Below are positions 1 through 64,000 of a DNA stretch of 64,000 nt, piece after piece; position 1 is the stretch's first letter, and the number at the start of each line of letters is the position of its first letter. The stretch spans positions 296,150 to 360,149 of the forward strand of contig CAVSQF010000022.1 of assembly GCA_963729835.1 (NCBI GenBank). The letters are read 5' to 3'. A program made the position numbers and the translations under genes. The stretch comes from an uncultured delta proteobacterium (GTDB taxonomy: Bacteria; Desulfobacterota; Binatia; HRBIN30). Below the pieces are notes generated by a model, which was given only the letters and a program-made list of their open reading frames with translations, searched no databases and had not been told where the DNA came from.

Positions 1-1674
1 AGATGCGGGCGCCGATCTCCTGTAAGTGGCCCGACGAGAAGGTCTCACCGGTAACGTAGGTCAGCCATTTCTCAAACCACAGCATCGGCCAGCCCTTGAG
101 GCCCATCACGGTGCGGAACACCGGCCCGCTGTTCTCGAACGCCGTGACGATGGCCCTGTACAGGAAGGATTTGGGATCAAGATTGTGCACCGCCTTGGGG
201 ATGATGCCGTACGTCGTAAACATGCAGAGCACCATGGAGTTGATCGCGCAGGCGAGGTTCTGCTGTACGATCGGCAACTCCGCCTTCAGTTTCAAATTCT
301 GCGGGTTGATCGTCAGCGGCCCAGTGGACTCCAAATACATGCTGGCGCCTTGGATGTGACACCCACCGCGGTTGGTGGTGGCGTACTCGACGCCTTGGGC
401 GAACGAGCCGCGCGGATCGTAGGCGGACAGCTCCAGGCCTTTCACGTGGATTGCGAACTCCTTGCCGCCGTACTTCTCGCTCATGCGCTTGACGCCGTCG
501 GCGAGGTCATTGCCCAACCCGCGGCGGTGCCCGATATCTTTGATCATATCGCTGACGCCCGCGGCATCGCCGAAGCGCAGTCCCACCTTGAGCATGCCGC
601 GCTCCTGCAACTCCATCGTGAATGCCAGCACGGAGCCGAGGCTGATGGTGTCCATCCCGAGATCGTCGGCGAGGTAGCTCCACTCATCAACCTTCTTGAG
701 GTCGGAAATTTCCAGATTGCTCCCCATCAGCCCGACGGTCTCGTACTCCGGCCCCTTGACGCGGCCCACGCCCTCGACCATCACGTCGCGGCCGCAGGTG
801 ACCGGGCAATGCATACAGCTCGTCTTGACCCCGACCAGCTCATGGTCCGCCATGTACTCGCCGGAGAGACTCAGGGCATCACGGAAATGGCCGTACTTGA
901 AATTATGCGTGGGGAGGATGTTGCGCGCGTTGGTGGTATTGACGATGTTGGCAGTTCCACACCGTTTCAACAGTCCACCGAGGACCGGATGATCGCGGAA
1001 GTGGTCGCGCAGCCACTTCGTGTACTCTTTGAACTTCTCCTCATTGTCCATCTCCAGCTTGCGTGAGCCATTGATGGAGATCGCCTTGAGCCGCTTCGAG
1101 CCCATGACCGCGCCGACGCCGGTACGGCCCGCAATCCGTTCTTCGGAAACGATGCCTGCGTACAGCACCTTGTTTTCGCCCGCTGGTCCAATGACCGCAT
1201 GATGCTTCTTCTTGTCGAGCGCTTCCTGGGTGGCGTAGGTCCCCTTGCCCCAGAGGTCATCGGCGTCGATGAATCGCACCTCGCTGCGGTCGCCGTCGAT
1301 CTCCAGGCGCACGGGCTTCGCCGACTGGTTCTTGCAGATCAGGATGTCGATGCCGCCGCGCTTCATGCCGTAGGCGAACGACCCGCCGCACGCCGCGTTG
1401 CCGATCGCGCCGGTCAGCGGGCTCTTGCAGACGACGGCGAAGCGGTTTGACTGCGGGGCCACGGAGCCGTTGAGTGGACCGGTCGCGAAGATCAACGGGT
1501 TCTTCGGCCCCAGTGGGTCGATGCCCGGCTCGGTCATGTCATAGAGCAAGCGGGTCCCGTACCCTTTTCCGCCGATGTACAGACGGGCGGTGCCTTCATC
1601 GAGCGGCTTGAACGTGTGCGTCCGCTTTTCCAGATCCACTTCGAGAATGCGGCCAGCGTATCCTTTAATCATGG
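1..1674 (-). CDS. aor: tungsten-containing aldehyde:ferredoxin oxidoreductase (AOR family), 3' end cut by window edge
   Basis: Minus-strand translation from ATG ~1672-1674 reads MIKGYAGRILEVDLEKRTHTFKPLDEGTARLYIGGKGYGTRLLYDMTEPGIDPLGPKNPLIFATGPLNG..., the classic AOR N-terminus. Later blocks include GGCHIQGASMYLE. Absent from ORF track because no in-window stop. The + ORF 26..1066 is its antisense artefact. Confidence 0.85.
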
Positions 1675-1774
1675 TGTCGACTCCCACTCTGTCCTTTCTA
1701 CCCATGCCCTGCTGTTCAAGCAACTTGAGAGTTGCACCCGCCGCCGGGTGGGAGCCTAACTAACGCCACCCTCC

Positions 1775-2734
1775 TCACAACCCCAGCCCGACCAGGTACT
1801 CGGTGGGCGGACGAAACGCGTTGAGCGACCATCCCAAGGCCTCATCGATCTCCGCCAGCATTGCCGGCTTTTCTTCGGGGATGCGACCGCTGATTTCGAG
1901 AAAATTCGAGACGTGGTCCGAGAGCAACGTCGTGGGGCCTTCGAGCTGCTCGACCAGCAGGCGGGTTTCTTGCAGCGCCTCATGAGCCGACAACAACGTC
2001 AGTGCGCCCGCCCGCCACCGGTCGTGCCACGGCGTGCCGGGCTGCGGCACGAACGTACGCAGCCGGATGAAGGTCGGCGGTGCCTGGTTGAGAACCTGCG
2101 CACTGCCCATCGCGTGCGCGCGCCAGCGCTCGGTGCCGGCTACGCCCACCATGAGATACACCGACAATTCGATCCCCGCGCCCATGACGTGGCGATATGC
2201 CTCGACCGCCTGTTCCGGCGTGACTCCCTTGTTGATGGCCTGCAGCGTCGCAGCGTCGCCGGACTCCAGGCCCGAGTGGATGCGGGTGATGCCGGCTGCA
2301 GCCACCTGCCGCCACTCCTGCAGGCTCTTCTTGACCAGAAATTTCGCCGAGCCGTACACCGTGATCCGCTGCAAATCCGGGAAACGTGCTTTTGCTGCTT
2401 CACCAATGGCCACGAGCTTGTCGGTCGGCAGGACGGCCGTGTTGCCGTCGGCCAGGAAGATAGTGCGCACGCCGTGCGGGCCGTACGCCCACCGCGCCAT
2501 GTCCAGATCCTCGATGATCTCCTCCATCGGGCGCACGCGAAACTTGCGTCCCTTGTACATGGCGCAGAACGCGCACTTGTTATGCGGGCACGCCAACGTC
2601 GCTTGAATGATCAGTGAGCCGGCTTCGCTGGGGGGCCGGTAGACCGTGCCTTCGTAGCGCATACGGGGCTCCGTACCGAATCCAATCCTCGCGGCATCCG
2701 CAAGGGCATCTCGTTTCGGCGCTTGTTTTAGCAC
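1775..2734 (-). CDS. radical SAM protein (possible AOR-associated maturase)
   Basis: 319-aa ORF with cysteine triad CPHNKCAFC (Cx4Cx2C) near the N-terminus and protein-like composition throughout. Located immediately upstream of aor on the same strand. Confidence 0.7.
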   Translation of the reverse strand: MLKQAPKRDALADAARIGFGTEPRMRYEGTVYRPPSEAGSLIIQATLACPHNKCAFCAMYKGRKFRVRPMEEIIEDLDMARWAYGPHGVRTIFLADGNTAVLPTDKLVAIGEAAKARFPDLQRITVYGSAKFLVKKSLQEWRQVAAAGITRIHSGLESGDAATLQAINKGVTPEQAVEAYRHVMGAGIELSVYLMVGVAGTERWRAHAMGSAQVLNQAPPTFIRLRTFVPQPGTPWHDRWRAGALTLLSAHEALQETRLLVEQLEGPTTLLSDHVSNFLEISGRIPEEKPAMLAEIDEALGWSLNAFRPPTEYLVGLGL

Positions 2735-7684: not shown

Positions 7685-8989
7685 ATGGGGGCGCAGCTGA
7701 CCCGATTCTGGCGTTGGATCACCTGGACGTGGAGCCCGGCAAGCGAGCGCGAAGCCAGCAGCGCGATTGTCGAGAACCTCTGGCTGCATTGGTTTCCGGC
7801 GAAAGTCGCCGAAGACAGCTTCACATGGAGTTACTCTCTCTGGCTCGGAGCGATTGCGGCCTTTCTGTTCCTCATCCTGACCGTGACCGGCGTGCTGCTG
7901 ATGTTTTTCTACGTCCCCTCGACCCAGCAGGCGTACTGGAGCATCAAAGACATCCACTACGTGGTCGGGTTCGGGTGGGTGCTGCGCAACCAGCATCGCT
8001 GGGCGGCCCACTTGATGGTGTTGGTGGTCTTTCTCCACATGCTGCGTGTTTTCTTCACGGGCGCCTACCGGGCGCAGCGCAGCGTGAACTGGCTCGTCGG
8101 TTTGGCGTTGCTGCTGCTGACCTTGTTCCTTTCCTTCACGGGCTATCTGTTGCCGTGGGACCAGCTGGCGTTTTGGGCAGTCACCGTCGGCACGAACATC
8201 GCCAAGGAAGCACCGTTGGTGGGGGCGGGGCTGCGGTTCGTCCTGCTCGGGGGAACGGAGATCGGCCAAAGTACGCTCGTGCGCTTCTACGTGCTGCACG
8301 TTGTCGTCTTGCCCGCGGCCGTGTTGGTGCTGTTCGCGTACCATATGTGGCGTATACGCCGCGATGGCGGCATGGCCGTCACCGACCCGGCTGCAACGGG
8401 CACCGCTCCCGTTGGTGGTGGGGCTCCGGTTGCTGGGAAGACCTACTCACTCTTCGGCATCACACCGGGGACCACCCTGGAGGTGCGTGCGGCCGGACCG
8501 CGCGATGAGGAGGACTCGGCTTTTTCATCACCCCACATGCTGCGGCGGCTGATGCTCGTCTTTCTCGGCGTGTTCACAATCACCATCGTTCTCAGTGTGC
8601 TTTCCGGAGCACCGCTGGAAGAGCCGGCGAATCCGGCGCTGACGCCGAACCCGGCGAAGGCGCCGTGGTATTTCTTGTGGCTGCAGGAGCTGGTGGCGAT
8701 TACCACGATTCGGTTGGGCGGGTTGACCCTCAGTGGGGGTCTTGTCGGTGGCATTTTGGTGCCCGGGATCCTGCTAGCGGCGGCGGTCGTCTGGCCATTT
8801 CTTGATGGCAGCCCGCTCCAGGTCATCGGCAAATGGTTCCCGCGGGAGCGCCGCGTGCAGAATACGGTGCTTGGGATCATCGCCTTCGCGATTCTGATCC
8901 TGGTGTTGATCGGCATGCTCATGCGCGGGCCGTATTGGCAGCTCTTCTGGCCCTGGCAAGCGTGGCCGGAGTTGCCACGCAGGTTGTAG
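7685..8989 (+). CDS. cytochrome b (b6-like N-domain fused to subunit IV-like C-domain)
   Basis: 434 aa polytopic protein with conserved cyt b blocks (WGAIAAFLFLILTVTGVLLMFFY, RNQHRWAAHLMVLVVFLHMLRVFF, LPWDQLAFWAVTVGTNI) and heme-ligating His pairs. Confidence 0.9.
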   Translation: MGAQLTRFWRWITWTWSPASEREASSAIVENLWLHWFPAKVAEDSFTWSYSLWLGAIAAFLFLILTVTGVLLMFFYVPSTQQAYWSIKDIHYVVGFGWVLRNQHRWAAHLMVLVVFLHMLRVFFTGAYRAQRSVNWLVGLALLLLTLFLSFTGYLLPWDQLAFWAVTVGTNIAKEAPLVGAGLRFVLLGGTEIGQSTLVRFYVLHVVVLPAAVLVLFAYHMWRIRRDGGMAVTDPAATGTAPVGGGAPVAGKTYSLFGITPGTTLEVRAAGPRDEEDSAFSSPHMLRRLMLVFLGVFTITIVLSVLSGAPLEEPANPALTPNPAKAPWYFLWLQELVAITTIRLGGLTLSGGLVGGILVPGILLAAAVVWPFLDGSPLQVIGKWFPRERRVQNTVLGIIAFAILILVLIGMLMRGPYWQLFWPWQAWPELPRRL

Positions 8990-24140: not shown

Positions 24141-24285
24141 CGGTGGTCTCCCTTCTGCGGCCGGCAAGTCCAGTGACGGCAGATACGGTGCCCGCCGCCG
24201 TCACTATCAACCTGCCACTGTTCCAGCGTCATGTTGCCGAAACATGAAACGTGAACACAACGGATCACGTTTCACGCATCACGTT

Positions 24286-24783
24286 TCAGGTTCCCACAGC
24301 CGGCTCGGGACGCAGAACGCGCAGCGGCGTGCGCGGCGGCGCGATCCGACAATCGCCGTCGAGGCAACCGCCCTCCTGGACGATCAGGCTCTGCGTCTCC
24401 ACCTTGCCCATCAAGCGGCCGCCGGCGCCGATCTCGACCCGTTCGGCTCCACGGACTTCGCCGCGCACTTCTCCGAGCACGACGAGCTTGAGCGCGCGCA
24501 CCGTCCCTTCGACTAAAGCGTCTTCGCCGACCACGAGCAGCTCGGTGGCACGCACCTCGCCACGCAAGGTGCCGTCGATGCGCGTTGGCACCGTGAAGCT
24601 CAGCCGTCCGCTGACCACCGTGTCGTGGCCCAGCGACGGCCGCAACACCGGGGCCGGCGCTACCACCGCCATTTCGGCAGGCGTGTCAGGTTCCCCAGAG
24701 GTCCACTCCTGGTCCGCCTCCACCTCTTGCTCCCCCTCCATCCTGTTCTCCGGCCTCAGCTCCTCTGTCCGCTTCCAAAACAC
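24286..24783 (-). CDS. bactofilin (DUF583) cytoskeletal protein
   Basis: Repetitive beta-helix pattern TVVSGRLSF...IDGTLRGEV...LLVVGEDALVEGTV...LKLVVLGEVRGEV...VEIGAGGRLMGKV...LIVQEGGCLDGD. Confidence 0.8.
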   Translation of the reverse strand: MFWKRTEELRPENRMEGEQEVEADQEWTSGEPDTPAEMAVVAPAPVLRPSLGHDTVVSGRLSFTVPTRIDGTLRGEVRATELLVVGEDALVEGTVRALKLVVLGEVRGEVRGAERVEIGAGGRLMGKVETQSLIVQEGGCLDGDCRIAPPRTPLRVLRPEPAVGT

Positions 24784-25800: not shown

Positions 25801-25885
25801 GGATTAACGCTGCGGACAAATGGAAAATGGAGAATGGAAAACGGAAAACCCGCGAACGAGAGACCCATTTTCCATTTTTCGTTCT

Positions 25886-26875
25886 TCATTTCTTCTGCTC
25901 TGACCACCCTGGTTCTGACGCCCGGATGCAGGCGGCCGCGTGGTCCGGCTCCACCTCGTCTAGCAGCGGATCGGTTACGGCGCAGCGGTCAACGGCGCTG
26001 GGGCAGCGGTCACGGAAGTGGCAGCCGGACGGCAGGCGCCACAAGTCAGGCACGATACCGGGGATCGCCTCGAGACGTCGTGCCTTCTCCGCCCCGACCT
26101 TAGGGATGCAGCGCAGCAAGCCGCGCGTGTACGGGTGCAGCGGCCGCGCGAAAATGGCGCTGACGGATGCGTGTTCGACGATGCGGCCGGCGTACATGAT
26201 CGCCACCTCATCCGCCCGCTCAGCCACGATACCCAAGTCGTGGGTGACGAGGATAAGCGCCATCCCCAAGCGGCGCTGCAGCCCCGCCAACAGGTCGAGG
26301 ATCTGCGCCTGAATGGTCACGTCGAGTGCGGTGGTCGGTTCGTCGGCAATCAGCAAACGCGGATGACAGGACAACGCCATGGCAATCATCACCCGCTGGC
26401 GCATGCCGCCGCTGAGCTGGTGCGGGTACTCGTCCACCCGGCGCTCGGGCTCAGGGATCTCCACCAGCGCCAGCATTTCGATCGCCTTCTTGCGTGCCGC
26501 GCGCCGCGTCAGCCCTTGGTGCAAGCGCACGGCCTCGGCGATCTGGTTGCCGATCGTAAAGACCGGATTCAAGGAGCTCATCGGTTCTTGAAAGATCATG
26601 GCGATGGCATTGCCGCGGATGCGCCGCATGTCGGCCTCGCGGAGCGCCAGCAGATTGCGGCCGTCAAAACGGATCTCGCCGCCCACCACGCGACCGGAGG
26701 GTGGCGTCAGGCGTAGGATCGACAGCGCCGTCATTGTCTTCCCACAACCTGACTCGCCGACCAGTCCAAGCGTGTGGCCGGGATCGAGAGTGAGACTGAT
26801 CCCGTCCACCGCACGCGCTTCGCCCTGCGCGGCAAAGAAGCTGGTGTGCAGGTCGCGCACTTCGAGCAATGCCAC
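25886..26875 (-). CDS. oligopeptide/dipeptide ABC transporter ATP-binding protein (OppD/DppD-like)
   Basis: RBS AGGAAA + GTG start ([14 protein letters not shown]). [28 protein letters not shown]. Upstream part of track ORF is artefact. Confidence 0.8.
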
Positions 26876-27081
26876 ACAGGCTTTCCTAGCAGCCTGGCGG
26901 CAAAATCGGAAGGTGTGCCGGCGTGCTGACGCGCGTCGTCTCCAATCTTTTCTGGCGCTCTGTCCGCGGCCGTGCTCCAATGAGGCATGTATTCTTCGCG
27001 CCGGCCAATTCCGGCGAGCGCCGTGCCCCGACGGATCGTGCCGTCGACCGGCGGGCCACACCGAGTTAAGGAGTGCAACTG

Positions 27082-28122
27082 ATGCGGTCATCACTAGTTG
27101 TGATCAACGGTCCGATTGATTCCCGTGCGCGGCGCAGCCGATCGACGCTCGCATGGCTTTGGGTGGTGAGTGTCGCGGTGCTTCTGGGCTTGCTTCCGGC
27201 GAGCCACTCGCAGGCGGCGGTCGACATCGCAGCGCAGGAAGCCTTTCTGCGCACCGCGCCGGGCGGCGGCGATGAAGTGACCACACCGGCGGTGGGCCAG
27301 ACCGTCTACTTCCACGTCGGCTTTCAGCTGACGGGGCCCGCGGGCTCGGTGGCGGTGAGCCAGCGTGCGTTGCTCGATGGGGCTGAGTTCTGCGCCTTCA
27401 CCGAGGACACCACTCCCGGCGATTGGTTCTCCTGGTGTCTCGACGGCTGGACGGCCACGGCGGGGACGCACACGCTGCAATGGGACCTCGACTACACGAA
27501 CACGGTGGCGGAAACCAACGAGAACAACAACTCGGTCTCCACGACGTGGACGAGCGGCGGGCCGACATCGACGCCGACGCCGGGCAGCGGAGTGGATATC
27601 GCGGCGCAGCGCGCGTTTCTGCGCACCGCGCCGGGCGGCGGCGATGAAGTGACCACACCGGCGGTGGGCCAGACCGTCTACTTCCATGTCGGCTTTCAAT
27701 TGACGGGGGCCACGGGCTCGCTGGCAATCAGTGGGCGAGCGCGATTGGATGGCGGCGACTTCTGCACGTTCACCTCGGACATCACAACCGGCACCTGGAC
27801 GGCGTGGTGCACCGGGGGCTGGACGGCGACCGCGGGGACGCACACCCTGCAGTGGGACCTCGACTACACGAACCAGGTGGCGGAAACGAACGAGAACAAC
27901 AACTCGGCCGCCACGACGTGGACGAGCGGCGGGCCGACCTGCGTTGGCGATTGCAATCACAGCGGCGAGGTCACTGTGGGCGAGCTCGTCACCATGGTGA
28001 ACATCGCCTTGGGCAGCGCGGCGTTATCCGCCTGCCCGGCCGGTGACGCCGATGGCAGCGGCACCATCGAGATCAACGAGATCATCGCCGCCGTGAACAA
28101 CGCCCTGGACGGTTGCCCGTGA
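27082..28122 (+). CDS. secreted protein with two tandem CARDB-like domains and C-terminal dockerin-like double repeat
   Basis: SD AAGGAG. Signal peptide. Two ~125-aa repeats ([38 protein letters not shown]...[22 protein letters not shown]). C-term [25 protein letters not shown]...[21 protein letters not shown]. Confidence 0.7.
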
Positions 28123-40191: not shown

Positions 40192-40262
40192 GGTTCCCCT
40201 CCTTACGAAGGAGGGGTCAGGGGAGGTTTGGAATGCCGCGATGCTTAACCTCCCCCTCGCCT
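40192..40262. repeat. GGTTCCCCTCCTTAC(C/G)AAGGAGGGGTCAGGGGAGGTTTG repeat, copy 1
   Basis: Palindromic core CCCCTCCTT-ACGA-AGGAGGGG followed by TCAGGGGAGG. A partial inverted partner CCTCCCCCTCGCC lies 20 nt downstream. Second copy at 42961-43045. Confidence 0.65.
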
Positions 40263-42960: not shown

Positions 42961-43045
42961 GGGTTCCCCTCCTTACCAAGGAGGGGTCAGGGGAGGTTTG
43001 AGAAGGCCGCTCTACCTCCCCCTGACCCCCTCCTTCGAAAGCAGG
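42961..43045. repeat. GGTTCCCCTCCTTAC... repeat, copy 2, arranged as ~85-bp perfect-ish hairpin
   Basis: GGGTTCCCCTCCTTACCAAGGAGGGGTCAGGGGAGG ... CCTCCCCCTGACCCCCTCCTTCGAAAGCAGGGGGAAC: the two arms are reverse complements. Confidence 0.65.
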
Positions 43046-43292: not shown

Positions 43293-43414
43293 AGCAGTCC
43301 TCCTGCCGGCATATGGCCTATGGCGTATGGCTTATGGCCAGAGCGCACCGCACGCGCGTGCCCGTTGGTGGCTGGGTTCTGGCCATATGCCACCAGCTAT
43401 AAGCTATACGCCAT

Positions 43415-56413: not shown

Positions 56414-57021
56414 CAGACCACTCCGCTCACGGCGTGCGGCGCCATCTGCCGGATCCGAAGAGCCCCAAGCTGCAGTGCGCGCAGGTTCATATCGACCAGA
56501 TCTTTTCTCCTTCTGGCGAACATCTCCGAGACTGCCGCCCGCAGCGACTCCGGCCTGACGCCCACAAACTCCGACGCGGCCCCGATCAGGACGATGTTTT
56601 GCGCGCGCGCGGTTCCTGCTTCTCTCGCCACCGTAGCCGCATCGATCAGGTACACCTTGCGACCGCAGCCCTGCAGCAGCTTCATCAACTTCTCACGCGG
56701 CGGGTAGTCTGGAATATTCTCGACGGTGGCGCTGTTTGTCACGATCAAGCCGCCGGGCGACAGGTAATCGATGTTCCGCAGCGCCTCGAGCGGTTCGGTT
56801 GCGAGAATGAGATCGGCGCGGCCCTTCGGAACGAGGTTGCTGAACAACGGCCCATCGGAGAGGCGCACATGGGCTTCAACCGCCCCACCGCGCTGGCTCA
56901 TCCCATGCACCTCCGCCTGCCGGACGTTCAGCCCCTCGCGCACGGCGGCATTCACGATCAGCACCGCCAGCGTGAGGATGCCTTGTCCGCCGACGCCGGC
57001 CAGAACGATATCCCGCTTCAC
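56413..57021 (-). CDS. iorB: indolepyruvate:ferredoxin oxidoreductase beta subunit (IorB)
   Basis: GTG start after [33 protein letters not shown]; 202 aa. Stop overlaps paaK ATG (ATGA). Confidence 0.75.
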
Positions 57022-57025
57022 CGTT

Positions 57026-57134
57026 CCTCACCGTTTCCGCGCCAGGTGGATGCACTTATGGGCATGCTTCGCGTGGTGACTCACGGGGTCTTGGTACCAT
57101 CAGTGCCGCTGCTTGTGCAACGAGAATGCGGCTC
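57026..57134. repeat. cassette-boundary repeat, copy 1 (CCTCACCGTTTCCGCGCCAGGTGGA ... GGGGTCTTGGTACCATCAGTGCCGCTGCTTGTGCAACG)
   Basis: Conserved 25-bp left box and ~50-bp right box flank a variable middle. Copies at 57026, 59291, 61030. Confidence 0.8.
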
Positions 57135-57484
57135 AGTGGATAGTTCCTACAAACGGGGTAATTGCCATAAGGGCTACCTATCAGACGTTCCCGTCATCCC
57201 GGATCTGCCCCGGAAAATTCCGGACGCCCTACGGAAAGCGCGGTGAGTGCCAAACGGGGTTGGGTTTTGTTTGGCGCGAAACCGGCGCAGTCCGAAACGC
57301 CCGTCCGAGCCCGGCTGAGCGGCGTCCACCCGGATGAGGGCGGAGTAATGAAGAAGAAAAAGGAACAGAGAAAAAAGGACGGGAACAGCTCGAAGCGGTC
57401 TTTGGGGGCCGGCGCTTTACTCTCCCCTAAGTTACGAGGGCGAGATCTCAGATCCGAGCGCAAAGGGTACTTGTACCCTGGTCC

Positions 57485-59164
57485 TTAGGGCGCCGCCGTT
57501 GCTGGTTCAGGTAGTTGAGCGTTTTTCCGAGCATTGCAGCCGCGATGAGCTAGCTGCCCATTCTCAGGGACAGTTTTCCCGCCCTTACTGTAGGGGATGA
57601 TGTGATCGACGGTACTATCATCCAGCGAGTGAATTTCATTCTTGCAGAGCTGACACACGGGGGACTTGTCGTACAGATTCTTCCTGAACTCAAAATCGAA
57701 GAAACGTGGCTCGATCAAACTGCCATCGATGATGGGCTGGACGAGTCCGCGAAACTTGGTCCATCGGAGTTTTGTCTGCGCAGTGCTACCGGTTCGTTTC
57801 GAAATAGCATCCTGCATCTCCACGTCCGTTAACATCGTTAGCAGGAACAGCTCGCGAATCTGTTCCGCCGCCTGTTGGACTTTAGCCGCTTGCTGATTCA
57901 TTAACGCTGACGCCTGAATGTCAAAGGCTGTCACGGAGAATCTCATGTCCCAGCTGCCCTTGTTCGTGCGTGGATTGACTTCGTAAAGTCTGGCAGCCTT
58001 GTCGCCGAAAACTGCGTAGATGTTCTGCATAGTTTGCCTGAATAGCGTTGCATGGGCTTTTAGTTGTTGGTCGTCCCGTGGAGCGTATTGCTCCATATAT
58101 TCGTTGAGGAACCTCTTAAGGTTTCCAGTATAGCTGTTCAGCCTGTTTGCAAAGGCAAAGAAACGTAGAATCATTTCCCGCTCCTTGAATCGCCCTTCAG
58201 GTCCATCTCCTCCCTTGGACTTCCGCCAGTATGTGTCCTGTTCCAGTTCCGCAAGGAGGTCATTGAACGGTCCGCGATAGACGCAGTTCCGAAGTTCTTG
58301 CTCGTTCAGCGTCATCGAACCACGGTTCAGGCGCTCAAAGACCTCATACCGGAGCTCCGTGTTAACCCCGGCATCGATGACGATGCTCCGAATGGGGGTA
58401 TCCAAAATCTTTTCTTGTTGCTGTTTGGTGAGGTCCCGGAAGAACTTGTGATTAAGGCTGGCCATTCGGTGCAATTTCCGAAGGGGAAACTTGTTCAAGA
58501 CGAAGTTCACAAGGGTCGTGAGACGTTGCTGGCCATCGATCATCTCCAGCCGCCCATCGCTAACTTTTCCGAAATAGATTGGCGGGATCGGGATTTCGAG
58601 CAGCAATGATTCAATCAAACGTGAAGGCAGTTCGGGGCGCAAGTTCCAGACGTATTCTCTTTGAAACTTGGGTTGAAGATCCAGTTGCCCTCTGTCCAGC
58701 TTGTCCCTAAGAGCCGAGATCGTCCAGTCAGAACTCTGGCTCATTACAGGGCGATCATCGGGTTTTCCAATAGGTTGCTCTTCCTCTTGATCCGGTTCTA
58801 GCTGATCCTCTGAAAGTGTTGGCTCTTCAGCTTCGCCGTTGCCAGCACTCGCAGTGACAGATGCTGACGGCGAATTCTGCGAACTTGAGGCTTCGTGATG
58901 GGTCGGTGGGGTATTGGCTTGCTTGCTTGCGGTAGTTGGAACCAAAACGAAGCGAACCAGCTCGTCGATTCCCGCATCGTCCAGCATCGGGTCAGTTTCT
59001 AGGCCAAGACCTGCCATAACAACTTTAATATCGGAAAGAACATTGGCCCCACGCCTGGAGGCCCCAAACCACTTGAGGACTGCGCGAACCTTGTACCTCC
59101 TGGGAACTTCCCCGTTCTTCAATTGCTGTGCTACTTCGACAATTCGTTTTGGAGCCTCGTTCAT
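57485..59164 (-). CDS. DUF262 (ParB-like) + C-terminal HNH nuclease, GmrSD/SspE-like defence protein
   Basis: DGQQRLTT (DUF262), acidic low-complexity linker, C-terminal VDHIIPYSKGGKTVPENGQLAHRGCNARKN (HNH). Region is visibly lower in GC than flanks. Confidence 0.75.
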   Translation of the reverse strand: MNEAPKRIVEVAQQLKNGEVPRRYKVRAVLKWFGASRRGANVLSDIKVVMAGLGLETDPMLDDAGIDELVRFVLVPTTASKQANTPPTHHEASSSQNSPSASVTASAGNGEAEEPTLSEDQLEPDQEEEQPIGKPDDRPVMSQSSDWTISALRDKLDRGQLDLQPKFQREYVWNLRPELPSRLIESLLLEIPIPPIYFGKVSDGRLEMIDGQQRLTTLVNFVLNKFPLRKLHRMASLNHKFFRDLTKQQQEKILDTPIRSIVIDAGVNTELRYEVFERLNRGSMTLNEQELRNCVYRGPFNDLLAELEQDTYWRKSKGGDGPEGRFKEREMILRFFAFANRLNSYTGNLKRFLNEYMEQYAPRDDQQLKAHATLFRQTMQNIYAVFGDKAARLYEVNPRTNKGSWDMRFSVTAFDIQASALMNQQAAKVQQAAEQIRELFLLTMLTDVEMQDAISKRTGSTAQTKLRWTKFRGLVQPIIDGSLIEPRFFDFEFRKNLYDKSPVCQLCKNEIHSLDDSTVDHIIPYSKGGKTVPENGQLAHRGCNARKNAQLPEPATAAP

Positions 59165-59290
59165 GCATCACCTCCGTGCTTGGTCGCAGTGGCGTTTTGT
59201 GCGTGTTCTCGTTCTCGACCAGAGCATTCGGTCGCAGCTGGACAATCTTAGATCAACGGCCGGACAGTTGCCGCGTCCCCGTCCCGCGCC

Positions 59291-59408
59291 CCTCACCGTT
59301 TCCGCGCCAGGTGGAGCCACTCCCGCTGCGCGACGCATCCTTCATACAATAGACGCCCGGGGTCTTGGTACCATCAGTGCCGCTGCTTGTGCAACGTCAA
59401 CGCGACCC
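59291..59408. repeat. cassette-boundary repeat, copy 2
   Basis: Same left and right boxes as copy 1; longer variable middle. Confidence 0.8.
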
Positions 59409-59614
59409 ATGACTTCGTGACTTCGGGGACGATGGCACCTTCGGTACGTTTCGCCGGTGATTCGTATCAAGAGTGCCATCGTCCGTGGATCGCGCTGGAT
59501 CGCAACGTCCCTGGATCGCAACAGGGGTTTCTCTACGCTGACCAGTTGATCCAGGCTGCCGAGCGCGACGGAACGGGTGCTCCAACCGCACCTCCCAATA
59601 TGCTAGAAGCCATC

Positions 59615-59857
59615 ATGCCGACGGTATTCACAAAGGAGGGATTTCGCTTTCACTTCTACAGTAACGAGCGCAACGAGCCGCCGCACATTCATGTCACGGG
59701 CAAGGGCGGCGAGATGAAGATTTGGCTCCCCTCGCTGACCGTCGCGTTCTCCTTCGGCTTGTCGCCGCCCGCCCAGCGACGAGTCGTAGAGATCACCCAC
59801 GAGAATATGACACTACTCATGGAGCGTTGGAATGAGTTTAGCCGCAAGAAGAACTAG
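59615..59857 (+). CDS. DUF4160 family protein
   Basis: MPTVFTKEGFRFHFYSNERNEPPHIHV matches the DUF4160 core (..F.FYSNDHNPPHiHv). Confidence 0.7.
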   Translation: MPTVFTKEGFRFHFYSNERNEPPHIHVTGKGGEMKIWLPSLTVAFSFGLSPPAQRRVVEITHENMTLLMERWNEFSRKKN

Positions 59858-60074
59858 AAGTTACCCGGCGATTGTCGGCGCGAGCGTCAGCGCGGACCAA
59901 CTGACGGCGAAGCTGAGCGACGGCCGCGAGGTGTCGGTGCCGCTGGCGTGGTTTTCACGCTTGCTGAATGCCACTCCGGCACAACGAAGGAGGCTCGAGA
60001 TTTCGCCTGGAGGATACGGTATTCACTGGCCTGAGATTGACGAAGATATCAGTGTGAAGGCGTTCCTGGATTGA
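59832..60074 (+). CDS. DUF2442 family protein
   Basis: LSDGREVSVPLAWFSRLLNATPAQRRRLEISPGGYGIHWPEIDEDISVKAFL matches DUF2442. Overlaps the DUF4160 gene end (typical pair). Confidence 0.7.
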   Translation: MSLAARRTRSYPAIVGASVSADQLTAKLSDGREVSVPLAWFSRLLNATPAQRRRLEISPGGYGIHWPEIDEDISVKAFLD

Positions 60075-60127
60075 CGAAACGCGGGCAACCTCGGCGAAGG
60101 ACCGACGCGGCGTAACCTACCGTTTGC

Positions 60128-60562
60128 CTACGGCGCGACCACGGTGAAGCCACCGAACGTGGCAAAATCGCGCGCGTTCGTAGTCAGCACGGAGGAGATG
60201 CCTGCGCTGCGGAACGTGGTGGCCAGCATCGTGTCGAGCACGCGCTTTCGCCCGAGCTGGTGCGCGCGCATCCAGTCGAGAAACAGCCGCATCGCCTCGG
60301 CGTCCGGGGTAACCTGCTCGATCTCGGGCGCGTTCCACCAACTCTCCGCGCGATCCAATGCCTCGCCCATTGGCAGCGGCTGGGAAAACCGCTTTGCATC
60401 GGTGACCACATGGACAAACTCCGCGAGCACCTGCGGCGTGAGCGCGAAGGTGTCTCCGGCCTGGCGCAACGCCTTCAGCTTAGCGCGAGCTGCAGAATGT
60501 TCGGCGTGCTCCGCCACTTCCGCAGCCACGAGAAAGCTCGTGTCAAAACCGTGCGTCATCGA
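60128..60562 (-). CDS. vapC: PIN-domain toxin VapC
   Basis: MTHGFDTSFLVAAE (first Asp), later D and TTNARDF motif; ~144 aa. Confidence 0.8.
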   Translation of the reverse strand, partial: SMTHGFDTSFLVAAEVAEHAEHSAARAKLKALRQAGDTFALTPQVLAEFVHVVTDAKRFSQPLPMGEALDRAESWWNAPEIEQVTPDAEAMRLFLDWMRAHQLGRKRVLDTMLATTFRSAGISSVLTTNARDFATFGGFTVVAP

Positions 60563-60761
60563 GCATCTCCGCGAGCAGATCGTCCTCCGCACTCAGCGGC
60601 CGGAGAACTTCACCCAGCCGGAGCGGCGGAAGGTCCAGCGGGCTGCGCCTCACGCCGCCGGCTTGTCGCCGCCGCGCCGAGTGCACCAGGCGCTCGAGCT
60701 CCGAAAGCTCCTTCGGGCTCAATAACGGAATCGCGGCCTCGATCTCGGCCAGTGTACTCAT
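60543..60761 (-). CDS. VapB-like antitoxin (small, overlaps vapC start)
   Basis: MSTLAEIEAAIPLLSPKELSELERLVHSARRRQ...; 20-nt overlap with vapC. Confidence 0.55.
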   Translation of the reverse strand: MSTLAEIEAAIPLLSPKELSELERLVHSARRRQAGGVRRSPLDLPPLRLGEVLRPLSAEDDLLAEMLDDARF

Positions 60762-61029
60762 GGCGCAGAACGTAGCACGCGCGCGCCGCGGTCGACAAGG
60801 CAGAACAGCTGAGCTGACAGAAACGTAGGGGCGAGTGGGACGACTTGAGAGCGAGGTGCTTGTCGGAGGGCGGACAGTTGACGCTTCATCGCCCCTCAGA
60901 GCAAATCGGGCGCCCAATGCATGACGGGCAGCCCTCTATAGACATTGCAGCGACCAACCCTGTCCTGAGCCCCGTCGAAGGAGGGAGCGGACCCGCCGCA
61001 CGGACGCCGGGCGCAGCCCTCACCGTTTC

Positions 61030-61114
61030 CGCGCCGGTTGGATGTATGACTCACGGGGTCTTGGTACCATCACTGCGGCTGCTTGTGCAACGACAATGCA
61101 ACCCAGGCGAGGAC
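61030..61114. repeat. cassette-boundary repeat, copy 3
   Basis: Same boxes; shortest middle (TGTATGACTCAC). Confidence 0.8.
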
Positions 61115-61347: not shown

Positions 61348-61632
61348 TTACTGGGGACGGCGCTTTGACTTCAAGCGCTGCGCGGCGGTGTGGAGGTCGG
61401 CAATGAACTCGTCGACGTTGTCGTAGGCGCGCGACAGGCCGATGCCGGCGCGGGCGCGCGCGGCCCGGCCTTCGTCTTCCTCGGCCTTGGCGCGGAAGTA
61501 GACGCGGAAAGCCTCGCGGGTGATCTCCGAGCGGCTGCGGTGCTCGGCTTTGCGGGCGCGGTCAATCTGTCGGGCCATCGGCACGGGCATCGACACGGTG
61601 AATGCGGTGCTGCTTTGTGGGTTGCGTGGCAT
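61348..61632 (-). CDS. ribbon-helix-helix (CopG/ParD-like) DNA-binding protein
   Basis: MPRNPQSSTAFTVSMPVPMARQIDRARKAEHRSRSEITREAFRVYF is an RHH beta-alpha-alpha pattern. Confidence 0.6.
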   Translation of the reverse strand: MPRNPQSSTAFTVSMPVPMARQIDRARKAEHRSRSEITREAFRVYFRAKAEEDEGRAARARAGIGLSRAYDNVDEFIADLHTAAQRLKSKRRPQ

Positions 61633-61751
61633 AGGGTATGACCTTTTATGAAAAAGGCGTATCAATCCGACTCTTCCGACCTACGTCCCTTTTGTACTCG
61701 CGGGCAAGGTCGTGCTGTTCAATCATGCTGCCGCTGGAGTAGAATGCAGAT

Positions 61752-62732
61752 GTGGTGATTCCCGTGCGCACATTATCCATCCTCATGATTGCGCTGATCC
61801 TGGCGGTACGTTCGTCAGCCGAGCCAACGACGGCAACACCGACGCCGATTCCGACTTTCAGCGAATGCAACCCATCAGCAGACGACTGCCCGGTTGGTAG
61901 TCAGTGCCTGTGCTGTTGCGGCACGTGGATATGCATGCCGCCCTATCTACCCTGCTGCGATATTGCCTGTTTGTCGTCAATACCGACGCCGACCGCGACA
62001 CCGACACCAACTCCTAGTGCATGTGATCCGCTCATAAACAACTGCCCTCTCGGAACTACCTGCGGCTGCTGTTGCGGGGCATGGGAATGTCTGCACGGTA
62101 CCGAAATCTGCTGTGAGATCGCTTGCATGTTCCCGACACCGGTTTCCACGGCGACACCGACACCAACCGAGCCCTGCAGTGGATCGCCTTGTGGTGGCAC
62201 CTGCGTAATCTGTCCGCCGTGTACACCGGGAACGATCTGTCCGTTGGCTCCATGCGAACTTGGGCACTGCGAGTTGAGCGCCGCTGGGAGTTGTGCTTGT
62301 GCCCCCGGTCTAGCAGCAACACCCACCGCGACACCCACGCTACTGCCTGGGACCTGTATCGGCGATTGTAACGGCGATGGGGCGGTGACCATCAACGAGA
62401 TCATCCTCATGCTGAACATCACGCTGGGCAACGTGTCGAGCGCTGCGTGCCCCGCTGTCCATGGGTGGTGTCCCGAGGGGTGCACCGTCAACGACCTTAT
62501 AGCGGCGGTGAACAACGCGCTGTACGGTTGCCTGGTCGGACCACCACCGACACCAACGCCCCAGTGCAGCGAGGTGCCATGCGGAGGCTCCTGTACGATA
62601 GCGCCGCCGTGCACTCCCGGTCCCAATACCGCCTGCCCAAATTCCGTTATGCTTGGCGTGTGCGGGCTGAATCCTTTGAGTGGCTGCCAATGTGAACCTG
62701 TCGAACCGGTGACGATGAGTTCAAGTACTTAG
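61752..62732 (+). CDS. secreted modular Cys-rich protein with PT linkers and dockerin-like double repeat
   Basis: Signal peptide; modules CNPSADDCPVGSQCLCCCGTWIC / CDPLINNCPLGTTCGCCCGAWEC; ATPTPT linkers; CIGDCNGDGAVTINEIILMLNITLG...[14 protein letters not shown]. Confidence 0.6.
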   Translation: MVIPVRTLSILMIALILAVRSSAEPTTATPTPIPTFSECNPSADDCPVGSQCLCCCGTWICMPPYLPCCDIACLSSIPTPTATPTPTPSACDPLINNCPLGTTCGCCCGAWECLHGTEICCEIACMFPTPVSTATPTPTEPCSGSPCGGTCVICPPCTPGTICPLAPCELGHCELSAAGSCACAPGLAATPTATPTLLPGTCIGDCNGDGAVTINEIILMLNITLGNVSSAACPAVHGWCPEGCTVNDLIAAVNNALYGCLVGPPPTPTPQCSEVPCGGSCTIAPPCTPGPNTACPNSVMLGVCGLNPLSGCQCEPVEPVTMSSST

Positions 62733-62900
62733 CGTGTCGGACCGAGTTTCGTAGCAGTCGGACAGGTCGGACGGGGCGACACAGAGCGCTCACCTTGCAC
62801 CCCATAGTTTACTACGAGAATCGGCAGTTGGCACGCGTGGTCACCGCATTTCCAGACACAGGCACTTCAGCGACCGAGATATGTAACCGGGTATCGATGC

Positions 62901-63296
62901 TCAGCCAGGGTCGGGTTGTGGGTCGCTCCAACTGTAAGAGTTGTACAAGTCGTGAATGCTCCCGTCAGTCGTCTTCTTCTCCCACATCAGCCCCGTCTGC
63001 CTGTCCGTGATCGTTCCGTTGCCGTTATCGACGAATCGTGGCGGACAGAGCGCCGCCACATTAGCCGCCACGACACTGTCCGCCGGAATCGACGGGTCCA
63101 GCGCCCGGAAACTCGGCGGCACGGGGGTGAGCCCAAGCAACGTGCGCGCTACGTAGACGACATCCGTGGCGACATCAGGCGGCGGTCCCGAGTCGTCCAC
63201 ATCGAGCGGACACGTGGACCCGGCACCGGCACTGCGAACACCGGTCAACAAGATCAAGAACGCAGCGCCAGTAAGAACTTTGAAAAACACTTTCAT
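62901..63296 (-). CDS. secreted protein with dockerin-like motif and DUF1566-like C-terminus
   Basis: Signal peptide MKVFFKVLTGAAFLILLTGVRSAGA; DVATDVVYVARTLLGL; FVDNGNGTITDRQTGLMWEKK resembles the DUF1566/Lcl signature. Confidence 0.55.
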   Translation of the reverse strand: MKVFFKVLTGAAFLILLTGVRSAGAGSTCPLDVDDSGPPPDVATDVVYVARTLLGLTPVPPSFRALDPSIPADSVVAANVAALCPPRFVDNGNGTITDRQTGLMWEKKTTDGSIHDLYNSYSWSDPQPDPG

Positions 63297-63480: not shown

Positions 63481-64000
63481 ATGGGACAGCTACGCGATCA
63501 GATGGACGGTGACTTGCGGCTCAAGGGCTACCGGCCCGTGACCCGGTACCACTACTTACGGTGCGTCGGCAGCTTTGCCGCACACCACGGACGCTCGCCG
63601 GCCACATTGGGCGAAGCGGAGATTCGGGCCTTCCTGCTCTACCTCATCCACGAGCGGCAGGCCCAACCGGCCACGGTACGGATGTACGTCGCGGCGTTGA
63701 AGTTCTTGTACGTAAACACGCTGCGTCGCCCCGAAGTGGTGGCGCATATTCCTTGGCCCCAGGTCCCGCAGCGGCTGCCCGATATTCTCACCCCCGGTGA
63801 GATCACGCAGCTGTTGAGCGCCGTGCGCTCCCTCAAACACCGGGTCGTCCTGATGCTCGCCTATGGTGCCGGCTTGCGGATCAGTGAGGTGTGCTCCCTC
63901 CAGGTCGCCGACATCGACAGTCAACGCATGGTCATCCACGTGCGCGACGGCAAGGGGGGCAAGGATCGCTACGTCATGCTGGGCGACCGACTCCTGGCGG
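63481..64000 (+). CDS. tyrosine recombinase with IntI-like N-terminal domain (5' part; continues beyond window)
   Basis: RBS AAAGGAGGAG. SPATLGEAEIRAFLLYLIHERQAQPATVRMYVAALKFLY and ILTPGEITQLL...LAYGAGLRISEVCSLQVADID...VIHVRDGKGGKDRYVML align residue-for-residue in pattern with IntI1 ([39 protein letters not shown] ; VLTPDEV...[21 protein letters not shown]...IIVREGKGSKDRALML). Confidence 0.8.
   Translation, partial: MGQLRDQMDGDLRLKGYRPVTRYHYLRCVGSFAAHHGRSPATLGEAEIRAFLLYLIHERQAQPATVRMYVAALKFLYVNTLRRPEVVAHIPWPQVPQRLPDILTPGEITQLLSAVRSLKHRVVLMLAYGAGLRISEVCSLQVADIDSQRMVIHVRDGKGGKDRYVMLGDRLLA

Follow-up and report, generated by a model that had tools for sequence, protein, structure and literature searches.

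A rare mosaic protein of cysteine-rich mini-domains with a dockerin-like module in an uncultured member of the Binatia

The window analysed here is a 64,000-nucleotide (nt) stretch of DNA from an uncultured delta proteobacterium (GTDB lineage Bacteria; Desulfobacterota; Binatia; HRBIN30), taken from contig CAVSQF010000022.1 of GenBank assembly GCA_963729835.1 (positions 296,150 to 360,149, forward strand). Near its end lies the gene that is our subject, an open reading frame (ORF) at 61752..62732 on the plus strand, delimited from the ORF list and from homologues, which encodes 326 amino acids (aa) plus a stop from a GTG start. An earlier note, made from the letters of the sequence, had described the product as a secreted modular protein with C-C-C-G cysteine clusters, ATPTPT linkers and an internal dockerin-like repeat, and this description holds up well. 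All four cysteine-rich strings that it quoted are in the translation (CLCCCGTWIC at aa 52-61, CGCCCGAWEC at aa 104-113, CVICPPCTPGTICPLAPCELGHC at aa 151-173 and CTIAPPCTPGPNTACPNS at aa 281-298), linkers of the TPTPT type separate the modules, a dockerin-like stretch occupies aa 199-263, and aa 1-23 have the appearance of a signal peptide. The cysteine-rich modules are of two kinds, A and B, which on the comparisons below appear to be two previously undescribed mini-domains. As a whole, the protein is best explained as an exported, disulfide-stapled and cohesin-docked display or binding protein, a reading on which we are evenly divided.

The composition of the target protein sets it apart from the rest of the window. 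Its 326 residues include 44 cysteines (13.5%) and 48 prolines, and against the window's 102 open frames that reach 200 aa or more, which have a median cysteine content of 1.8% and a 95th percentile of 4.4%, it is an extreme outlier. This pattern is not a product of chance, because about 35 metagenomic homologues (E 5e-84 to 1e-18) conserve every cysteine of the modules; in addition, a near-identical copy (P0092) was assembled independently from another read set. Sequence conservation of this kind argues that the ORF is a real gene. A GGAG at 61734-61737 precedes the GTG, and an in-frame TAG at 61740 fixes the earliest possible start. The public call for the same gene (P0001, 265 aa, on a 441,720-bp NCBI/ENA contig) begins at Met62 of our translation and thereby drops the signal peptide and half of the first module, affecting 61752-61934. 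Homologous N-termini, such as that of P0008 (MVIALRPLSLLVLALTLAV...), together with the completeness of the first module, support the longer GTG start; the start codon given in the public annotation was mis-called and is corrected here. The homologue P0010, which begins MPPYLPCC..., may have been mis-started in the same way.

Read from its N-terminus, the protein opens with a predicted Sec signal peptide (aa 1-23; 61752..61820, plus strand), read from the sequence as MVIPVRTLSILMIALILAVRSSA followed by EP, with a basic n-region, a hydrophobic core and SSA preceding the putative cleavage site. Homologues P0003, P0005 and P0008 share this layout, which suggests that the protein is exported. Five modules follow on the same strand, spaced by Pro/Thr linkers at 61821-61859, 61977-62015, 62133-62171, 62307-62345 and 62541-62561, and the DNA of these linkers is itself repetitive (CGACxCCGAC...). 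Module A1 (aa 37-75; 61860..61976) has 10 cysteines and belongs to an 'alpha' subtype, CCCGTWxCMPPYLPCC, while module A2 (aa 89-127; 62016..62132), also with 10, belongs to a 'beta' subtype, CGCCCGAWEC...CCEIAC; the two are 46% identical. Module B1 (aa 141-185; 62172..62306) has 10 cysteines, made up of an 8-Cys core and an optional pair, C154 and C168, and module B2 (aa 271-316; 62562..62699) has the 8-Cys core form. Between B1 and B2 lies the dockerin/EF-hand-like module (aa 199-263; 62346..62540), with 6 cysteines.

The cysteine pattern of module A, C-x6-C-x5-C-x-CCC-G-x-W-x-C-x6-CC-x3-C, places 10 cysteines in about 35 residues, and in 28 aligned instances all ten, one Gly and one Pro are invariant. 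Also conserved in module A are an aromatic position (Trp/Phe/Tyr) and several Pro and Gly residues. An A1-like module is followed by an A2-like one in 12 of the 13 close relatives that carry both subtypes. The module B consensus, PQC..PCGGxC.I.PPCTPG..CP....LG.C......C.C.P, has 8 invariant cysteines in 46 instances, plus the two optional ones. A relationship between modules A and B was considered and rejected (hhalign probability 2.9%).

Comparison with known families yielded little for either module. The earlier note had called for a search for remote homology, with a match to a well-known domain of assigned function, such as a metallothionein or a keratin-associated-like repeat, as the result that would refute its reading; the target protein matched nothing in Pfam or NCBIfam at E<=1, those two families included, and nothing in PADLOC at E<=1e-3, and profiles of modules A and B found nothing significant among the sequences of the PDB. 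The note had also called for structure prediction. From an alignment of 28 sequences, AlphaFold2 (AF2) placed a central beta-hairpin over the CxCCC-G-xWxC core of module A, with a mean predicted local distance difference test (pLDDT) score of 82.6 for the module; B1 and B2 were poorly modelled, at pLDDT 42-57. The only Foldseek matches, all weak, were EGF modules and a scorpion toxin. The CC(C)G-x-W motif had prompted a comparison with hevein/CBM18, a likeness that was rejected on an hhalign probability of 0.6%. The modules do share much with the hevein/CBM18, knottin/inhibitor cystine knot (ICK), granulin and EGF-like domains, namely a length of about 35-45 aa, 8-10 cysteines, a central beta-hairpin, a conserved aromatic residue after CC(C)G and an extracellular setting, but the cysteine spacing and fold specific to each of these families were not found in them.

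A further bacterial analogy is with proteins bearing the myxococcal cysteine-rich repeat/DUF4215 (PF13948; Myxococcota and relatives), which, like the target, are secreted, cysteine-rich and modular. One homologue (P0048) has a precomputed PF13948 match, and the neighbour of another, on metagenomic contig L001, matches DUF4215 below threshold (22.4 bits, where 27 is the cutoff). In the homologues a C-terminal CDDGNGCTxDxC resembles the DUF4215 repeat by eye only, and P0002, which carries this motif, is without a Pfam DUF4215 match. The target itself differs from PF13948 proteins in having no DUF4215 match at E<=1 and in its modules A and B, which are unrelated to DUF4215.

The family to which the target belongs is small. 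In a full HMMER scan, the module A profile matched only 23 proteins among 1.84 billion cluster representatives, all at E<=4e-9; there were no weaker matches below these, so the module A family is sharply bounded. A homologue search with the module B alignment returned none, probably because of a word-index limit with a profile of 46 columns. Among 185,579 species-representative genomes, a separate scan found three loci in two metagenome-assembled genomes (MAGs), both named Candidatus Binatia, and the distribution of these sequences suggests that the mosaic family is probably specific to Binatia. Its members are mosaics in which A, B, dockerin-like and further cysteine-rich modules recur in varying order and number. 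Many carry a C-terminal HGHTCCEC...CDDGNGC module, some carry Ig/CARDB-like or cohesin-like domains (judged by eye), and no Pfam enzyme domain was found in any of them. A search of the literature for Binatia or Binatota together with dockerin, cohesin or cysteine-rich proteins found no papers.

The dockerin-like module bears on how such a protein might be used. Its first loop (62364..62399, plus strand) has an intact 12-residue consensus, D205-x-N207-x-D209-G-x-V-x-x-x-E216, and reads D205-C-N-G-D-G-A-V-T-I-N-E216, which fits the EF-hand/dockerin Ca2+ loop. Its second loop (aa 237-248, HGWCPEGCTVND), aligned without gaps to 27 canonical modules, shows H, W and P in the ligand positions. Canonical dockerin-like modules have 4 conserved cysteines and the target module has 6. 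AF2 predicts two helices, at aa 214-224 and 246-258 (pLDDT 70-79). With phmmer, a type I dockerin is the best match to the target in the PDB (E 0.12), and the profile of the dockerin-like family matches EF-hand pairs (calmodulin, 2e-4) slightly better than the dockerin 5lxv_B of Ruminococcus flavefaciens (1.2e-3). The top four Foldseek matches in the PDB are dockerins of Clostridium thermocellum, with E-values of 0.33-1.5 that alone are not significant; TM-scores are 0.50-0.56 for two single dockerins and 0.28-0.30 when normalised to a 138-aa double dockerin. The module resembles type I dockerins (PF00404), non-cellulosomal ones included, in its length of about 60 aa, the two loop-helix repeats predicted for it, the D-x-N-x-D-G-x-V-x-x-x-E form of loop 1 and a distance of about 32 residues between the loops, and dockerins are its best sequence and fold matches in the PDB. 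It differs from them in being internal rather than C-terminal, in scoring below Pfam thresholds, in the loss of loop 2 and in its cysteines, which probably clasp the module. Taken together, these sub-threshold comparisons and models are consistent with a dockerin identity for aa 199-263.

Cohesins, the partners of dockerins, occur in the same lineage, and true cohesin genes adjoin members of the family in related MAGs. On contig L003, a gene at 958-2145 (minus strand) encodes two cohesin domains and a dockerin-like end (34.4 bits for Pfam Cohesin, whose cutoff is 24.1) and is the divergent neighbour of a gene for a 655-aa module A protein. On L001, a cohesin-like gene at 7882-8856 (plus strand) lies 90 nt upstream of the gene for homologue P0016, in a neighbourhood that is a cluster of dockerin-like-tagged secreted proteins. 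A profile built from the cohesin domains of both contigs, which belong to Binatia MAGs, matches solved cohesins at 4.7e-11 and 5.8e-7. Within the window, a further gene at 27073..28122 (plus strand) encodes a secreted protein with two CARDB repeats and a C-terminal canonical dockerin-like module with two loops and four cysteines, one of the 27 used in the alignment above, so the docking module is used by other proteins of the genome. Compared with known dockerin proteins, the target would carry cysteine-rich mini-domains as cargo and has no enzyme, and binding to a cohesin is what we infer from these neighbourhoods.

Whether the cysteines of the modules form disulfides or bind metal is a question on which their numbers bear. 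Intramodule cystines predict even counts and paired gain and loss of cysteines, whereas metal-thiolate clusters do not require either. The segments of the target contain 10, 10, 10, 6 and 8 cysteines, with none in the signal peptide, and across 47 family proteins an even count was found in 168 of 183 linker-delimited segments that contain cysteine (92%); several of the 15 odd segments are artefacts of splitting by the linker expression, as where a module A was cut into 1 + 9 cysteines. The optional cysteines of module B (C154 and C168 in the target) are both present in 20 of 46 instances and both missing in the other 26, with no instance of a single one (Fisher 1.8e-13), a statistic that, like the parity count, treats related sequences as independent and so overstates the case. 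It follows from this joint gain and loss that every module B instance has 8 or 10 cysteines. Together with the signal-peptide-like N-terminus, the conserved aromatic residues and prolines and the ordered hairpin, these patterns in sequences and models favour disulfide-stapled modules, that is, cysteines that act as staples and not as metal ligands.

The earlier note had left the choice between metal binding and disulfide knots open; of its two suggestions the second has gained support and the first has found no positive evidence. If the protein were instead an extracytoplasmic metal sponge or sensor, its CxCCC, CC and CxC motifs would, much as in a metallothionein, bind Cu, Zn, Cd or Fe-S-type clusters. 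Thiolate clusters typically involve CCC, CC and CxC motifs, and such runs in the modules would fit them. The target modules also share with metallothioneins a cysteine content near 30% per module and CC and CxC motifs, the density of module A (10 in about 35 residues) is within the metallothionein range, and the invariance of its 10 cysteines is explained equally well by metal ligands and by disulfides. Set against this, neither Pfam nor NCBIfam gave a match to a metallothionein or any other metal-binding family at E<=1, cysteines are even in number per module and the optional pair of module B is gained and lost jointly, and module A has conserved Trp/Phe/Tyr, Pro and Gly and was modelled by AF2 as a hairpin at pLDDT 83 without metal. 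The protein, unlike metallothioneins, is also apparently exported, and its signal peptide would take it to a compartment where Dsb-type oxidation is expected. We therefore regard a metal-binding role as unlikely.

Our preferred account, in which the target is a docked display protein, runs as follows. The protein would be exported via Sec and its signal peptide removed, after which five compact modules on Pro/Thr linkers would fold outside the cytoplasm into a non-enzymatic protein resembling beads on a string. A1, A2, B1 and B2 would each be held rigid by 4-5 internal disulfides, and the central dockerin/EF-hand-type module would have one working Ca2+ loop, with a cysteine pair in place of the second. 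Through this module the protein might be tethered, in a Ca2+-dependent manner, to cohesin-bearing proteins of the same organism, so that a scaffold on the cell surface or outside the cell would present its disulfide-stapled mini-domains as binding modules of high stability. We are fairly confident of the structural part of this description and considerably more tentative about the docking and display function, which we hold as a possibility somewhat short of probable; export, disulfide formation, cohesin docking and a role in binding or display are each what the protein's features would lead one to expect. The metal-binding, remnant, toxin or inhibitor and integron-cassette readings all seem to us less likely than docking and display.

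Several observations weigh against this account, in addition to the overstatement in the cysteine statistics and the low scores of the B1 and B2 models. The ten cysteines of module A are all invariant, which puts their pairing beyond a test by covariation, and the dockerin-like variants of some relatives have 7 cysteines. Pfam Dockerin_1 does not match the target at E<=1, the fold match to dockerins would not stand alone, and the window contains no cohesin-like ORF within its 64 kb. Loop 2 of the dockerin-like module is degenerate, with C240 and C244 inside it and the acidic ligands gone. This last feature does not exclude docking, since a natural 'group 2' dockerin of R. flavefaciens with a single Ca2+ loop binds cohesin (PMC12270676). 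Finally, the target lacks the C-terminal HGHTCCEC...CDDGNGC module of most of its close relatives and may be a truncated copy, as the ends of the homologous sequences suggest.

This possible truncation is the basis of another alternative, that the target is a decaying remnant, a 3'-truncated and non-functional copy stranded in a recombination-prone island. In most close homologues B2 is followed by a linker and a C-terminal cysteine-rich module of about 100 aa; in the target, homology stops inside the linker after B2, between ...EPVEPVT and a terminal MSSST, and nothing left of the C-terminal module was found when the DNA beyond the stop was searched. Across a 168-bp spacer, the 3' end of the target faces the truncated end of a convergent ORF of 131 aa at 62901..63296 (minus strand), which lies between the target and a recombinase gene. 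This ORF encodes a signal peptide as well as a D-x-D-x-S-G stretch, which to the eye is similar to a dockerin-type loop, and it looks 3'-truncated, as only the first quarter of the Lcl_C/DUF1566 domain (about 25 of 117 positions) is present. The break in homology and the truncated neighbour make a deletion between the two genes possible, and the spacer may be the scar of that deletion. The location of the target in a repeat-bounded variable region of lower guanine-plus-cytosine (GC) content also accords with a remnant. What speaks for a functional gene is that 326 codons are intact, with the signal peptide, five complete modules and all conserved cysteines kept; that P0005 and P0013 are naturally without the C-terminal module; and that the near-identical P0092 comes from an independent assembly. 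A non-functional remnant is, on this evidence, about as improbable as a metal-binding protein.

Less probable again is that the target is a secreted effector whose mini-domains inhibit proteases or act as toxins or antimicrobial peptides, comparable to ICK/knottin, WAP or granulin domains, although domains of that sort are typically small and dense in disulfides, with a beta-hairpin at the centre, and EGF modules and a scorpion toxin were the only, weak, Foldseek matches.

To return to the docked display protein, the family points to an unexplored cohesin-dockerin network in uncultured Binatia. More speculatively, and in our estimate rather doubtfully, Binatia may have a non-cellulosomal cohesin-dockerin display system whose cargo is not enzymes but a shuffled repertoire of disulfide-knotted mini-domains. 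Were this so, A, B and at least six further cysteine-rich modules would be joined by recombination-prone Pro/Thr-linker DNA, the system would be a bacterial counterpart of the eukaryotic EGF/knottin mosaic surface proteins, serving adhesion or ligand capture, and module A, which has three half-cystines in a row, would represent a new type of cystine-stabilised fold. Secreted proteins of eukaryotes commonly contain mini-domains dense in disulfides, which, to our knowledge, have been described far less frequently in bacteria. The family described here supplies two such modules without detectable relatives, one of which packs 10 half-cystines, a CCC run among them, into about 35 residues; these, if confirmed, could be of interest to protein engineers as new cystine-knot-like scaffolds.

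The earlier note had also placed the target as the recombinase-proximal cargo of a cassette array, and here its description does not hold. The target lies in a repeat-bounded variable region of lower GC content. A bipartite direct repeat of 100-130 nt occurs there in three copies (57011-57136, 59276-59410 and, nearest the target, 61003-61106), each consisting of CCTCACCGTTTCCGCGCC..., a variable spacer of 0-31 nt and then ...GGGGTCTTGGTACCATCAsTGCsGCTGCTTGTGCAACG. The repeat is confined to the last 7 kb of the window, beside the recombinase. It is not attC-like and does not fold into a hairpin, and it is not in Rfam, a search of which with 56.5-64 kb gave two sub-threshold chance matches only. 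The three copies separate a GmrSD/NsnA-like + HNH gene, a set of DUF2442, PIN and antitoxin genes, and a segment in which the target is accompanied by a ribbon-helix-helix (RHH) gene, the truncated DUF1566-like ORF and the recombinase. Immediately next to the first copy is the start codon of a gene whose 202-aa product by eye is iorB/PFOR-gamma-like, and on metagenomic contig L005 (889-991) the same repeat occurs at the same place and is followed by different small genes. The region beside the recombinase is variable and probably acquired, and a mobile or variable context for the target is plausible. The repeats may represent a duplicated attachment-type site of tandemly accreted islets, a suggestion that we regard as unproven.

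The recombinase itself (63481..64000, plus strand) is a Xer-like tyrosine recombinase, of which the 5' part, 173 aa, precedes the window edge. Among NCBIfam models it matches 'integron integrase' best (E 5e-32 for the half that is present). Because the copy in the window ends at aa 173, membership of the IntI family was judged by proxy from the full-length proteins most closely related to it (286 aa, 92% and 88% identical). On TIGR02249, which has a cutoff of 265 bits, these reach 203-207; their match breaks off at position ~177-180 of the 315 in the model, and a Xer-type model scores them just as high. Homologues of the recombinase number over 4,800, and among the matches listed those with the best scores are mostly on contigs of 1-3 kb; a 106-aa fragment 97% identical to it (P0164) is on another NCBI/ENA contig, of 293 kb. 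The number of homologues and their short contigs suggest that it belongs to a high-copy mobile element.

Capture of the target by an integron integrase at attI/attC sites would be consistent with a recombinase of this best model 750 bp away, with the small toxin-antitoxin and defence genes nearby, which are typical of cassette arrays, and with the three conserved repeats, which bound segments of 1.7-2.3 kb. Yet strict and relaxed pattern searches and arm-complementarity scans found no RYYYAAC...GTTRRRY inverted arms in 57-63.5 kb, and in the folding of single-stranded DNA that, with these ad-hoc scans, made up our search for attC sites, the three direct repeats and the spacer after the target folded no better than shuffles (z -0.7 to +2.3). 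The full-length recombinase relatives, taken as proxies, fall below the IntI cutoff and lack the IntI insert. The orientation is also wrong for a cassette, as the target is on the strand of the recombinase and convergent with 62901..63296, which moreover separates it from the recombinase. Homologues in other integron cassettes, which the earlier note had proposed to look for, did not appear: the family members examined elsewhere sit in ordinary chromosomal neighbourhoods, and none adjoins an integrase. By the tests run the target is not an integron cassette, and we consider the idea very improbable; an 'integron integrase' best model and nearby small genes do not make an integron.

The neighbouring genes and repeats merit a brief description of their own. 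The gene at 57485-59164 (minus strand) encodes a GmrSD_N + HNH protein whose best PADLOC match is NsnA (1e-82) and lies in a low-GC segment (0.52-0.55 against ~0.63); judged by these matches, its product is probably an acquired anti-phage nuclease. At 59832-60917 are a DUF2442 gene (plus strand) and a gene for a PIN toxin with an overlapping upstream antitoxin-like ORF (minus strand). The RHH/CopG protein gene at 61348-61665 (minus strand) is divergent from the target, and directly 3' of the target stop the heptamer GTCGGAC occurs three times within 37 nt (62736-62772). Elsewhere in the window, a 39-nt GC-rich palindromic element is present in two copies with 97% identity (40192-40230 and 42962-43000), a TATGGC-type heptad inverted repeat lies at 43308-43412, and two GGAAAA/GAAACG-rich palindromes are found at 25802-25887 and 24237-24296.

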